Shown here: piece after piece, positions 33,001 through 39,000 of the stretch
How positions within the stretch are numbered: the stretch's first letter is position 1
How the letters are laid out: each line of letters opens with the position of its first letter
Source of the DNA: Escherichia coli O127:H6 str. E2348/69
Lineage (GTDB): Bacteria > Pseudomonadota > Gammaproteobacteria > Enterobacterales > Enterobacteriaceae
Assembly: GCF_000026545.1 (NCBI RefSeq)
Contig: NC_011601.1
Reading direction: 5' to 3' (one strand)
Length of the DNA stretch: 64,000 nucleotides
Made by a program: the position numbers

Positions 33001-36000
33001 GGGTTAGGCTTAAATCAAAGTTTTTGTGTGTATGTATTCGAAGGCGAACAAGGAAAGCGAGACAGTATTGTCGTTGTAGCCCAGTTGTCGCCGGAATTCA
33101 CGGCTCGCCTTGTTGACCGTTGGCGAGAGCTTGAAGAAGCTGCGGTTAATATCCCAAAAACGCTACCAGAAGCGTTGCGCCTTGCTGCTGACCTTGCTGA
33201 GCAGAAAATGCAACTGGAAAACCAGCTAGCAATTGCCGCACCTAAAGTTGAGTTTGCCGATCGCGTTGGCGAGGCCAGCGGAATTTTGATTGGAAACTTT
33301 GCAAAGGTTGTTGGAATTGGTCCAAACAAACTGTTTGCGTGGATGCGCGATCACAAAATCCTTATTGCTTCAGGTTCCCGGCGCAATGTGCCAATGCAGG
33401 AATATATGGATCGCGGCTATTTCACAGTGAAAGAAACAGCGGTCAACACAAATCACGGAATACAGATATCGTTCACCACAAAAATCACCGGGTGTGGTCA
33501 ACAGTGGCTGACCAGAAAGCTGCTCGATAACGGAATGCTGAAAGTAACAGGGGAGGCTGCTTAATGGCTAACCTACGCAAAGAAGCTCGCGGCAGAGAAT
33601 GCCAGGTACGTATTTACGGCGTATGCAATGGCAACCCTGAAACTACAGTTCTGGCACATTACCGGATGGCTGGAATTTGCGGAACGGGAATGAAGCCTGA
33701 CGACCTGATCGGCGCATGGGCTTGTAGCGCGTGTCACGATGAAATCGACCGACGCACCCATAACCTCGACAACAAAGACGCCAGACTTTACCACCTCGAA
33801 GGCGTGATCAGGACGCAGGCGATACTGCTGAAGGAGGGGAAGATTAAGCCATGAACGAATATCAGTTTGTGCTTCCATACCCGCCGTCGGTGAATACCTA
33901 CTGGCGAAGACGGGGAGGCCAATACTACATCAGCGATAAAGGCCAGAAATACCGAAAAGACGTTCAGCAAATCATTCGCCAACTCAAGTTAGACATTTTC
34001 ACCAAATCACGACTCCGTATCAAAGTCATCGCAGACGTTCCAGACTCCCGCCGCCGCGACCTCGACAACATCCTGAAAGGTTTACTCGACTCCCTTATCC
34101 ACGCCGGATTTGCGGAAGACGACGAGCAATTCGATGACATTCGCGTAATTCGTGGTGTGAAAGTACCAGGCGGAAGGCTTGGAATAAAAATCACCGAACT
34201 GGAGAACACATGAACAAAGCATTCGAACGATATATGCGCCAGCGTTATGGCAATCGCTACGATCTTACCCGCGATGCTTACGGCTTCTACTGTCGTGAGG
34301 TTGTGAAACGAATGTTTGAAGTGTGGTGTCATTGCAAAGGATAGAGGGGAAGACGATGAGACTCGAAAGCGTAGCTAAATTTCATTCGCCAAAAAGCCCG
34401 ATGATGAGCGACTCACCACGGGCCACGGCTTCTGACTCTCTTTCCGGTACTGATGTGATGGCTGCTATGGGGATGGCGCAATCACAAGCCGGATTCGGAA
34501 TGGCTGCATTCTGCGGTAAGCACGAACTCAGCCAGAACGACAAACAAAAGGCTATCAACTATCTGATGCAATTTGCACACAAGGTATCGGGGAAATACCG
34601 TGGCGTGGCAAAGCTTGAAGGAAATACTAAGGCAAAGGTACTGCAAGTGCTCGCAACATTCGCTTATGCGGATTATTGCCGTAGTGCCGCGACGCCGGGC
34701 GCAAGATGCAGAGATTGCCACGGTACAGGCCGTGCGGTTGATATAGCCAAAACAGAGCAGTGGGGGATAGTTGCTGAGAAAGAGTGCGGAAGATGTAAAG
34801 GCGTCGGTTATTCAAGAATGCCAGCAAGCGCCGCATATCGCGCTGTGACGATGCTAATCCCAAACCTTACCCAACCCACCTGGTCACGCACTGTTAAGCC
34901 GCTGTATGACGCTCTGGTTGTGCAATGCCACAAGGAAGAGTCAATCGCAGACAACATTTTGAATGCGATCACACGTTAGCGCCATGATTGCCACGGATGG
35001 CAACATATTAACGGCATAATATTGACTTTTTGAATAACTTTGGGGAAACTTGACACCAATAATGGGCGTTTTTTACATGTCATTGATGAGTCTCAATAAC
35101 CTGCCGCCGAGTAGTTTTTATGCTCTGAATTGTATTTGTGTAGTAAACATGCTGACTGCAATGTAATAGAGTTTTTTTAGCCTGTAACCTCTTGACGGCA
35201 TTGAATTGCTTTTGTTATGAGTTGTAAGCCAATGTTATCATCTTGTATTGGGGTGGTTATGAAGGATGGTGCACTGCTCAGGAGTTCTTCACTTTTTATT
35301 GCCTACATGGGATGCCTTGGATGGGGGAGTGCTTATTTCTATGGATGGGGTACTTCTTTTTACTACGGCTTCCCATGGTGGATTGTAGGTGCAGGTGTTG
35401 ATGATGTTGCCAGAAGTTTATTTTTTGCAGTTATCGTCATTGCTATATTTCTTATCGGTTGGGGTATTGGTGTTGTATTCTTTTTCGCAGTGAAAAGAAA
35501 ACATTCTATGCAAGAGCTAAATGTATTTCGCCTTTATTTTGCTGTGGAATTATTGTTTGTGCCGGCAATTATTGAGTTTTCTATATTGAGACAGAAGATT
35601 CAGGTACCTCTTTTGCTACTGTCAGCAGCGATTGCGCTGGCGGTTACAATTTCGATAAGATCTTATGGGCGATTTTTATCGGTATCATGCTTCTATGATA
35701 AGCCATTTATAAAAAAACATTTTTTTGAGATTGTGATGATTGCTTTTGTGGCATATTTCTGGCTTTTTTCATTTCTGACAGGATATTACAAACCGCAGTT
35801 TAAGAAAGAATATGAAATGATTAATTATAATGATGGTTGGTATTATGTTCTTGCTCGTTATGATAATTGTCTGGTTTTGTCTACTTCTTTCAATGCAGGT
35901 AGTAAAAGGTTTGTCATTTATCAATCAGCACAAGATAAGAATCTTCAGGTTGATATTGTAAGGACCAGAATTTAATTGGCTGCATAAATAATATTTTAAG

Positions 36001-39000
36001 TTGCAAGTTGGCTATTCGTAGGAATAGAACCTTAGGCATGCTGAATGCGTTTTCTGAACATTGTTTTATAAACTGTGTCTGCTTGCTGTTGTGATCCTGC
36101 TTTTAGTGATGGTGATGATGGATTTCACCAGCAGGATAATGTTGGTACTGACTGATGGCGCTCTGGTCTGCGGCATTGTGGTATTGCTGTGGCCGATGAT
36201 GAAAAAACAGAATGAATAATCCTTGACTTTTTTGTTTACTGTTTATTAAAAAATCAACCGCATGGTGAATCCTCCTTGGAGGGGCTAAATGATCGAGTTT
36301 TAAGGGCACGTAGCGAGTTCTGTTTGATCATTGCAGAACTTAGCGGGAGGCGCCATGCGTACATCACTAATGTTATTTCCTTCTATCATTTTCCTTGTGA
36401 GTTCTGGCTGCGCATGGCGCGGCCTTTTTTTTATGACCTGCCACTGGCAGATGGTCATCCTGTGATTTGATTCCGGTTCCGGCTTTTTAACTCTGTTCCT
36501 GTACACGGGAGAAATTCTATGTCGATTAATCGTTATGATATTGGTTACAAGAAGTACCACGTATTGTGTTGAGATAGAAAGCATGGTGCCAGAGGTAAAT
36601 GCAGCAGCATAATAAAAAAGAGCCAGCGCAGAAGAGAACGGGTAAAAGAGTCTGCGCTGGCGTGGGGATATTCCCCGTGGAGAAATGATATGTAACACAC
36701 ATCGGGAACCTTTCTATATAAACATTATCATTATTGTCAATCATAACAGTCAGGTATTATGACGTTTATGCATCAGGGCCATCAGGAATTAACTGGTGGC
36801 TTTTTATTGTTGTCAGCTTCCGGATAACGGGAGACGGGGTATGTACCAGATGGAAAAAATAACAACAGGTGTGTCATACACCACGTCAGCGGTGGGGACG
36901 GGATACTGGCTACTGCAGTTGCTGGACAAAGTCTCCCCATCCCAGTGGGTGGCAATAGGCGTATTGGGTAGCCTGGTGTTTGGCTTGCTGACGTATCTGA
37001 CAAACCTTTATTTCAAGATTAAAGAAGATAAGCGTAAGGCTGCGAGAGGTGAATAATGTCGCCATCATTACGCAAGGCTGTTGCTGCTGCTATTGGTGGT
37101 GGGGCTGTTGCCATAGCGTCTGTGCTCATCACTGGTCCGAGTGGTGACGATGGCCAGGAAGGTGTCAGCTACATACCATACGAAGATATCGTTGGCGTAT
37201 GGACTGTATGTCACGGACACACCGGAAAAGACATCATTCCCGGTAAAACGTATACCGAAGCAGAATGCAAAGCCCTCCTGAATAAAGACCTTGCCATGGT
37301 CGCCAGACAAATTAACCCGTACATCAAAGTCGATATACCGGAAACAACGCGCGGCGCTCTTTACTCGTTCGTTTACAACGTGGGCGCTGGTAATTTCAGA
37401 ACATCGACGCTTCTTCGCAAAATAAACCAGGGTGATATCAAAGGCGCATGTGACCAGCTACGTCGCTGGACATACGCTGGCGGTAAGCAATGGAAAGGGC
37501 TGATGACCCGTCGTGATATTGAGCGTGAAGTCTGTTTGTGGGGGCAGCAATGAGCAGGGTAACCGCGATTATCTCCGCTCTGGTTATTTGCATCATCCTC
37601 TGCCTGTCATGGGCTGTTAATCATTACCGTGATAACGCCATCGCCTACAAAGAGCAGCGTGATAAAAAAGTCAGTGAGCTGAAGCAGGCGACCGCCACCA
37701 TTACTGACATGCAGCAACGCCAGCGTGCTGCTGATGTACTCGATGCTAAATACACGAAGGAGTTAGCCAATGCGAAAGCTGAAAATGATGCTCTTCGGCG
37801 TAAGCTTGATAATGGTGGTCGGGTGCTCGTCAAAGGAAAATGCCCTGTGCCAGCCTCAGCCAAAACCTCCAGCTCCTCCGGCATGGGCAATGATGCCACC
37901 GTCGAACTCTCTTCAGTTGCTGGACGAAACGTTCTCGGTATCCGGGACGGAATTATCCGTGACCAAACAGCACTGAGAACGCTTCAGGAGTACATCAGGA
38001 CGCAATGCCTGAAATAATTTTTTTGCAAATCACAAAGTCAATTTAATGAGCCTCGCGATGCGGGGCTTTTTTATGTCCGCAGTAAACGCGCATCTCACGC
38101 GCATATTAACGAGAGCCTTTCAGTAAGCGAGCCTGAGAAATGCCGTTATAGGTGGCGACCTCTCTCGGGCGGCTTTTCTGTGAGACAGGCTCACTTTCTA
38201 AAAGGTAAAGACGCTATGAATAATCATTCAGTTATTCCAGCCTTCGACTTCCGAGAAATGGTGCAAGCCAAAAACGGAGAGGTCGTTACCACATCCAGAA
38301 AAATTGCCAAGTACTTCGGCAAGCGACACGGTGATGTTCTCAGGAAAATCGAGCAGGTTAAGGCTGATTGCTCGCGTGAGTTTAGCCAACGCAATTTTGC
38401 GTCGGCTGATTATATCGATGAGCAGGGCAAGGTTCGCCCGATGTACAGCCTGACGAAAGATGGCTGGATCATGGTTGTGATGGGGTTCACCGGGAAAGCT
38501 GCTGCGGCAATCAAGGAGAGCTATATCGCAGCATTCAACTGGATGGCAGAGCAACTGAGCCGCCGCATGGCAATTGGCGAAGAAATGCAGCACCGCTACG
38601 CCATCAAAGAAACACGCTCAAAGCTGAAAGGTACGATCGGCAGTCGGTTAATGAACGAACGGAAGAAAGAGAAGCGTGTCCTGGCTGTCGAGCATGAATA
38701 CATTTTGCAGGTGACACAGCCTGAACTGCTGATTAATTGAAGATGTCATTACAAAGCCTATCTACGGGTGGGCTTGATAATGGCTTATACCCTGCACGGG
38801 ATAACTTAACTGATATCCCTTTTAACGGATAAAGGTATTCAAGCCTGACACATCATGCGCTGTATCGTCGCCGTATTCCCGCATTAACCATGATCGTAGC
38901 CCGACGGGGAATTCCTTCTGCGTGAGTGTGCGGGAATAATCAAAAACGATGCACACCGGGTTTTTACCGCGTTTATGATTCGTGGGTTTGTCCCTCATGC

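Follow-up and report, generated by a model that had tools for sequence, protein, structure and literature searches.

Which genes occupy the interval between the antiterminator gene Q and the holin gene (S) of a lambdoid prophage, and do they serve lysis or the lysogen? We addressed this question for prophage PP4 of Escherichia coli O127:H6 str. E2348/69, an enteropathogenic E. coli (EPEC), whose Q-holin interval lies within the 64,000-nucleotide stretch of NC_011601 analysed here (the window). An earlier note, made from the sequence of the window, had placed between Q and S an accessory module comprising an AT-rich membrane protein and two small hydrophobic peptides. The placement was correct, and some 850 bp of the interval were rightly described as low-coding; their content consists of RNA genes and a gene remnant. 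With a probability that we put at about 0.8, the interval is a cargo ("moron") slot behind the late promoter pR', holding a self-contained lysogenic-conversion cassette rather than late lysis accessories. This interpretation draws on the anatomy of the interval, the family memberships of its genes, the ability of the cassette to move between prophages whose Q genes differ and its published expression in the uninduced lysogen. The cassette (35115-36543) comprises the inner-membrane protein TfpB, a 52-aa DUF3927 peptide with two helices and, at its 3' end, PasD1, a trans-acting, Hfq-dependent small RNA (sRNA). Downstream of it, the esterase gene nanS-p, the usual next gene, has been deleted, and a convergent Esr41-like sRNA is encoded on the opposite strand, immediately ahead of the holin gene. 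The locus itself is not new, having been annotated and its RNAs described in print. The Q-holin interval of 1881 bases was 100% identical to EPEC O127:H6 E2348/69. The positions of Q (E2348C_1011; 1058356-1058979 in NC_011601, 34356-34979 in the window) and of E2348C_1012 tie the two numberings, so that a window coordinate equals the NC_011601 coordinate minus 1,024,000.

The cassette was found to be mobile. By blastn its identity was 98.6% with a segment of PP2, another prophage in E2348/69, and 98.3% with phage 434 (OL657226), and the TfpB protein is identical in all three. In PP2 and phage 434 the cassette follows a Q82-like Q gene, unlike that of PP4, which is of the lambda type and whose 3' end aligns almost base for base with lambda Q. 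Identity to lambda continues through Q and pR' to about position 35058 and then ends; PP4 lacks the rest of the 6S/tR' region of lambda. The separate acquisition suggested in the earlier note is thus supported by a cassette of about 98% identity behind a different type of Q and by the end of lambda homology just after pR'. The GC content is 0.31-0.40 in the tfpB stretch and 0.38 in the cassette, compared with 0.50 for the window. The PP4-type arrangement, at a query coverage of at least 80%, was present in 585 of the 5426 complete E. coli genomes. As expected of a moron, a term used here in the sense that Juhala and co-workers are said to have given it in 2000, the cassette is absent from lambda, occurs behind two types of Q and deviates in base composition. 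It may also have a promoter and a terminator of its own for expression from the repressed prophage, with which a conserved promoter-like motif, a terminator hairpin and published expression in the lysogen are consistent.

Published RNA sequencing (RNA-seq) of uninduced EPEC gave baseMean values of 147 for tfpB, 8652 for pasD1 and 2064 for the minus-strand RNA, compared with 6 for Q, 5.4 for the holin gene and 3.9 for the lysozyme gene. The values for tfpB, Q and the holin gene indicate that tfpB is transcribed without Q-dependent late transcription. Expression on prophage induction, as implied by the position of the module, is therefore not the whole of it: tfpB and pasD1 are both expressed in the uninduced lysogen. 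A candidate sigma-70 promoter lies upstream of tfpB, with TTGACG at 35192-35197, an 18-nt spacer that includes an extended -10 TG (35213-35214), and TATGAG at 35216-35221. The motif is kept at the same spacing upstream of a 59%-identical copy on a plasmid encoding the heat-labile toxin (LT) of enterotoxigenic E. coli (ETEC), and a second consensus promoter match was found at 35212-35241. By alignment with lambda, pR' would comprise a -35 element TTGACT (35022-35027), a -10 element GAAACT (35045-35050; TAAATT in lambda), a start near 35057 and a -10-like pause element AATAAT (35058-35063; AACGAT in lambda). No terminator was detected between pR' and tfpB by consensus scan, by folding (z-score -0.48) or by alignment with lambda for tR', and the first intrinsic terminator on the plus strand after pR' is that of PasD1. 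The candidate pasD1 promoter lies 7-8 nt upstream of position 36260, where the published RNA begins.

These elements suggest how the cassette may be expressed. The tfpB and DUF3927 genes would be transcribed from the sigma-70 promoter upstream of tfpB and/or constitutively from pR', and their transcripts would end at the PasD1 terminator. The same terminator would be the first stop that Q-modified polymerase has to read through on its way to the lysis genes. PasD1 itself would arise from two sources, its own promoter and the 3' end of the tfpB-DUF3927 mRNA. The discoverers of PasD2, the PP2 copy, drew it as the 3' untranslated region (UTR) of the DUF3927 gene, with the directionality "(> >) >" (PMC8550237). 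A separate observation concerns PasA, an sRNA of PP2: RIL-seq, in which interacting RNAs are ligated and sequenced, recovered chimeras of PasA with PP2 tfpB mRNA (57 chimeras, p = 0.02), at a site that PP4 shares (35387-35417). This hints that the sRNAs of the cassette regulate its own membrane gene.

With regard to tfpB, the open reading frame (ORF) at 35217-35975, noted before as a 252-aa AT-rich multi-pass membrane protein, is real and, by its AlphaFold2 model, encodes a membrane protein. The probability of 252 codons without a stop in a T-rich stretch of 36% GC is about 2e-8, so that a chance ORF is discounted. Its start, on the other hand, had been placed too far upstream. The methionine at 35259, which gives a protein of 238 aa, is shared by all 22 full-length homologues, drawn from Escherichia, Citrobacter, Cronobacter, Klebsiella, Enterobacter, Salmonella and Yersinia, and the ATG at 35217 falls within the conserved promoter-like -10 element. 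In RefSeq the identical product is called "STM1630 family protein". The full-length family profile PF27470 (TfpB) places it in the TfpB family, with a precomputed match in 108 of 108 homologues, including the 100%-identical cluster representative P0001. A Pfam-A copy that lacks the PF27470 model yielded nothing for TfpB, whether searched with the single sequence or with the alignment, and NCBIfam gave no match for any ORF of the interval. The PHROG families matched here are of unknown function, and a literature search on the names TciB and TfpB returned unrelated acronyms only.

The protein shows the architecture of the family, with an aromatic- and glycine-rich N-terminal helix, 4-5 transmembrane helices and a C-terminal beta domain. 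An AlphaFold2 model built with the 22 close homologues was poor (predicted local distance difference test score, pLDDT, 59), whereas the addition of 12 distant homologues gave a usable model from 34 sequences (pLDDT 80.9; predicted template modelling score 0.74), which has five long helices and, at the C terminus, a domain of five strands (residues 184-235). From this model and from its hydropathy, TfpB is taken to be an inner-membrane protein with 4-5 transmembrane helices, and the charge distribution predicts that the beta domain is periplasmic. In the alignment of the 34 sequences the conserved positions are aromatic residues, glycine and two arginines (W22, Y26, Y28, G29, W30, W40, R52 and the Y195-Y196 motif), and the first helix, rich in aromatic residues and glycine, is invariant; no catalytic-looking residue, that is no conserved acidic residue or histidine, was found there. 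Given this lack, the aromatic/glycine helix and the small beta domain, the most likely, though tentative, mode of action of TfpB would be to bind some other component of the envelope and not to act as an enzyme. Structural relatives in the AlphaFold database reached TM-scores of 0.7-0.97, and AFDB50 gave uncharacterised relatives only.

The first small hydrophobic ORF (36109-36219) is real sequence as well, but it represents the 3' two-thirds of a 52-aa DUF3927 gene, from which the conserved N-terminal helix had been cut off. The complete protein matches DUF3927 (PF13064) over residues 7-50 with an E-value of 1.5e-14 and phrog_1470 ("TciB-like") with 1.2e-17, and its N-terminal helix is conserved in 14 homologues. 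Variants from E. albertii (P0185, P0197, P0218 and P0226) carry one to three tandem LEAGGWR(L) repeats in the loop that joins the two transmembrane helices.

The region downstream of this gene corresponds to an RNA rather than a peptide. PasD1 was published as a PP4 sRNA at 1060260-1060432 on the plus strand (Pearl Mizrahi et al. 2021, PMC8550237 Table S6), that is 36260-36432 in the window, and the reverse complement of 36393-36416 equals the Northern probe exactly; the RNA of the window is PasD1 itself, with no difference. It is Hfq-bound, discrete and abundant by Northern blot, RIL-seq and RNA-seq (PMC8550237). Its seed UGUGAG lies at 36396-36401 and its intrinsic terminator at 36406-36432. 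In a permissive Rfam scan of the interval, in which sub-threshold matches were recorded against the gathering scores, STnc100 (RF02076) matched over the full model at 36230-36435 with 37.7 bits (E 4.3e-6). As this is below the gathering threshold of 47, PasD is regarded as a divergent relative of STnc100 and not as a member by the Rfam criterion; a relationship to STnc100 has also been reported (Zhu, Shabalina and Storz 2026 preprint, 10.64898/2026.05.13.724894). Weak matches to asX2, SorX, GcvB and others at the PasD terminator were taken as terminator noise.

The second small ORF (36355-36465), previously taken for a lipoprotein-like gene with a strong Shine-Dalgarno sequence, starts inside this published sRNA. 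ORFs of at least 36 aa are expected here by chance at a rate of 4.5 +/- 1.9, as judged from shuffled sequences. The frame is intact in the PP4 copy only: a 1-nt indel halts it after 14 codons in PP2 (PasD2), in phage 434 and in L006. Its stop codon (36463-36465) lies 33 nt past the 3' end of PasD1, and the GGGAGG proposed as the Shine-Dalgarno sequence pairs with CCUCCU in the predicted PasD1 fold. The sequence before the cysteine, ...FLVSSGC, has a serine at -3 and does not fit the lipobox [LVI][ASTVI][GAS]C. Because of its chance size, broken frame, stop beyond the RNA, paired Shine-Dalgarno sequence and overlap with a published sRNA, the ORF is not a gene. PasD1 could in principle have two functions and also code for the hydrophobic peptide of 36 aa, and the ATG does follow GGGAGG at good spacing; in view of the same broken frame, overrunning stop codon and paired GGGAGG, this is extremely unlikely. 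The 62-aa "putative membrane protein" annotated over PasD in the phage 434 record is probably an artefact.

The order of elements in PP4 corresponds to that of a known site. In enterohaemorrhagic E. coli (EHEC), moron coding sequences downstream of PR' are followed by convergent sRNAs (Tree et al. 2014, PMC4104026), and in the Stx2 phages, which carry the Shiga toxin 2 genes, STnc100 lies 75 nt downstream of stx2 (PMC12370729). The tfpB-DUF3927 pair therefore sits in the position of the toxin genes of Stx phages. The slot directly downstream of Q and pR' is the same, and so is the succession of cargo coding sequence, sense sRNA of the STnc100/PasD type, nanS-p, antisense sRNA and holin gene, which in Stx2 phages includes AsxR. 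PP4 differs in carrying tfpB and the DUF3927 gene instead of stxAB and in the deletion of nanS-p. Anti-sRNAs of the AsxR/AgvB type were not found in the PP4 interval by the Rfam scan at E-values up to 5. The phage 434 record lists, in order, a putative membrane protein, TciB, the "putative membrane protein" over PasD and a SASA esterase. Phage 434 and PP2 both have an intact, annotated esterase and PasA instead of the Esr41-like RNA, whereas about 1754 bp of nanS-p are deleted in PP4. In what is left, the first 25 nt of the gene (36519-36543) adjoin some 85 nt from its 3' end and the sequence beyond (36544-36628).

Beyond this remnant, on the minus strand, we identified an Esr41-like RNA that is convergent with pasD1 and fills the slot of PasA in PP2, as seen when it is aligned with PasA. 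Its promoter match consists of a perfect TTGACA (36740-36735) and TATAGA (36718-36713), its fold has a z-score of -6.7 versus shuffled sequences, and it ends in an 11-bp terminator. Published RIL-seq data contain about 808,000 minus-strand reads at 1060613-1060672, booked under the coding sequence "E2348C_1013", which occurs solely in the role of the sRNA partner; the chimeras involve the entC 5' UTR, the nlpD-rpoS intergenic region and the dnaK 5' UTR, and in published data the RNA drops about 8-fold without Hfq. Esr41 is a prophage sRNA of EHEC that regulates flagellar genes and the enterocyte effacement locus (LEE). Both RNAs are Hfq-dependent, are encoded on the minus strand at the same position relative to PasD, and share a UUUCUCCA(C/U)GGGG core and a terminator. 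The PP4 RNA differs in its much longer terminator loop and in its low Rfam score (RF02676 at 36612-36701, 32.3 bits, E 1.1e-3, versus a gathering threshold of 102), and its published partners are the entC and rpoS-leader regions. RefSeq places a 132-aa "hypothetical protein" here (WP_012578864.1; 36300-36698, minus strand), which is probably no gene: its start lies within the Esr41-like sRNA, it extends beyond the terminator of that RNA and is antisense to PasD1, and its PP2 counterpart is a frameshifted pseudogene. The coordinates of all features are collected in Table 1.

Table 1. Features of the PP4 Q-holin interval (window coordinates) and of TfpB homologue loci elsewhere (handles L, coordinates within each locus).
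Feature	Position	Strand	Basis or remark
Lambda-type antiterminator Q gene E2348C_1011	34356..34979	+	RefSeq "antitermination protein"; left border of the interval
pR' late promoter	35022..35063	+	Alignment with lambda 44470-44799; element roles by analogy
Candidate sigma-70 promoter of tfpB	35192..35221	+	Consensus motif; predicted activity
tfpB-family gene E2348C_1012, 238 aa	35259..35975	+	RefSeq "STM1630 family protein"; Pfam PF27470; PHROG 1521
DUF3927 (TciB-like) gene, 52 aa, TTG start, two transmembrane helices	36061..36219	+	PF13064, phrog_1470, RefSeq coding sequence
Candidate pasD1 promoter	36223..36252	+	TTGACT 36223-36228, A/T-rich -10 at about 36245-36252; predicted from motifs
pasD1, 173-nt Hfq-binding sRNA	36260..36432	+	Published coordinates, probe, Rfam, fold
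nanS-p (SASA-family sialate esterase) remnant	36519..36628	+	blastn versus PP2 (L034) and phage 434 (L001)
Esr41-like Hfq-binding sRNA, about 94 nt (about 36706 to 36613), with promoter	36613..36740	-	Rfam, fold, RIL-seq reads
Second terminator-like hairpin upstream of the holin gene	36775..36803	+	Consensus scan; phage 434 annotates an equivalently placed terminator
Class II holin gene E2348C_1014	36841..37056	+	RefSeq annotation; right border of the interval
ETEC and Shigella plasmid TfpB homologues	L035-L038, L044: 1987-4714; L043: 5001-5717		
Moraxella TfpB homologue loci	L024-L026: around 4974-5567; L023: 491-1276		

The TfpB family extends well beyond prophages. Among the 5426 complete E. 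coli genomes, tfpB was found in 691, where its copy number has a median of two and reaches three, and the family as a whole is confined to animal-associated Gammaproteobacteria and Neisseriaceae. In a Yersinia prophage the homologue directly follows Q. On ETEC plasmids, homologues of 57-59% identity lie about 870 bp upstream of eltAB, in divergent orientation, and near STb; 106 Shigella virulence plasmids (pINV) carry one, including pWR501 (135269-135985). The gene is also kept after prophage decay. A prophage remnant that adjoins bioA/bioB in Escherichia sp. MOD1-EC7003 (L011, 4935-6481) still carries tfpB (94% identical), together with an N-terminal fragment of the esterase and, in the slot that PasD1 fills in PP4, a genuine STnc100 (98.4 bits); its DUF3927 ORF has been lost. 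Likewise, Salmonella has retained STM1630 beside sseJ. The STM1630 protein is 46% identical to TfpB of PP4, Moraxella TfpB and other distant relatives are 20-27% identical over the full length, and all have the same layout of helices and beta domain. STM1630 and Moraxella tfpB are stand-alone chromosomal genes outside prophage late regions, in contrast to tfpB of PP4, and the Pasteurellaceae homologues are orphan chromosomal genes. The Moraxella homologue has type IV pilin genes on one side and an IS110-family recombinase gene on the other; this pilin inversion locus is the source of the name tfpB, and the naming of the ORF in the inversion region reportedly goes back to work by Fulks and co-workers in 1990. 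The Moraxella ORF measures about 195 aa in M. equi and M. lacunata and 261 aa in M. bovis.

This distribution bears on the function that had first been considered for the interval, a late accessory module in which a membrane protein and two hydrophobic peptides, one of them a lipoprotein, are made under Q control only and serve as lysis modulator or membrane toxin. The genes do lie between pR' and the holin gene in late orientation, so that Q-dependent read-through must transcribe them on induction, and the DUF3927 protein resembles class II holins in its small size, two transmembrane helices and charged tail. However, the lipoprotein ORF is the frame within PasD1 that overruns the RNA and is broken in near-identical copies, with a serine at -3 before the cysteine that is not a lipobox residue, and in uninduced cells the expression of tfpB exceeds that of Q and the holin gene about 25-fold. 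Moreover, homologues without lysis genes occur on Shigella pINV and ETEC plasmids and on Salmonella and Pasteurellaceae chromosomes, and deletion of STM1630 had no effect on growth. Lysis modulation and membrane toxicity thus fit poorly with stand-alone homologues that have neither lysis genes nor a partner, and the distribution of the family speaks against TfpB as a toxin or as a factor that times lysis. We consider such a module highly improbable. The lysogenic-conversion cassette, which we prefer, has to be set against several observations that weigh against it. The -10 element of PP4 pR' is weaker than that of lambda, which makes a constitutive contribution of pR' uncertain; the roles of promoters and terminators rest on consensus matches and published coverage; and RNA-seq reads may be shared by the 98.6%-identical PP2 and PP4 copies. 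TfpB had no match in PADLOC at E-values up to 1, in solved structures, including a profile search of PDB sequences, or among viral structure models (BFVD). The Pasteurellaceae homologues have housekeeping genes as neighbours and lie outside defence islands, and deletion of STM1630 caused no growth or intramacrophage defect (PMC6785131). STM1630 also scored as hypermotile in a screen, and a follow-up study ascribes such hits to polar or secondary effects.

As to what the cassette would do for the lysogen, a protective or exclusion role of TfpB is our best guess, and a tentative one. In its specific form, TfpB, with or without the DUF3927 protein, would act in superinfection exclusion or anti-phage defence by blocking, from the inner membrane, the entry of the genomes of incoming phages, like P22 SieA, HK97 gp15 and T4 Imm. 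This is possible for a cargo gene that is expressed in the lysogen, encodes a polytopic membrane protein that is non-enzymatic and has a domain predicted to be periplasmic, is found again right behind Q in unrelated prophages, that of Yersinia among them, and is kept in up to three copies per genome; yet TfpB corresponds to no PADLOC model and to no characterised exclusion protein by sequence or fold, and many homologues lie outside prophages and defence islands. Alternatively, TfpB could be an envelope factor linked to host adaptation or virulence, for example in toxin or pilus export or in tolerance of host membrane stress, which would account for its company of toxin and effector loci. Homologues lie close to eltAB and STb, on 106 Shigella virulence plasmids, within the Moraxella pilin inversion locus and beside sseJ in Salmonella, where STM1630 was studied after intra-macrophage transcriptome data (PMC6785131); tfpB of PP4 occupies the slot equivalent to that of Stx, and the family keeps to animal-associated bacteria. 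Nevertheless, such linkage may reflect hitch-hiking among AT-rich mobile DNA, the deletion of STM1630 did not impair intramacrophage replication, and no partner gene is common to all contexts; we regard this role as rather unlikely. Under a more speculative proposal, possible but doubtful, TfpB would be an unrecognised envelope factor carried on mobile elements of animal-associated bacteria next to toxin, effector and pilin loci and might act by an as yet undescribed mechanism, for example as a new class of entry exclusion or as a helper of toxin or pilus export, and tfpB-DUF3927-PasD would be the constitutive product of pR', with the sRNA terminator serving as tR'.

The findings also have implications for annotation. 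Small hydrophobic ORFs in prophage Q-S intervals need to be checked against sRNA catalogues before a peptide is called, since coding sequences that are probably spurious have been placed both over PasD, in the phage 434 record, and over the Esr41-like RNA, in RefSeq. Well outside the interval, at 14550-14972 of the window, Rfam matched the cspA thermoregulator with 156 bits. The TfpB family is present in E. coli and on the virulence plasmids of Shigella and ETEC, and the searches gave no relative of known function by sequence or fold. For EPEC, the PP4 locus constitutes a regulatory hub that encodes two of the most abundant Hfq-bound RNAs of this organism.

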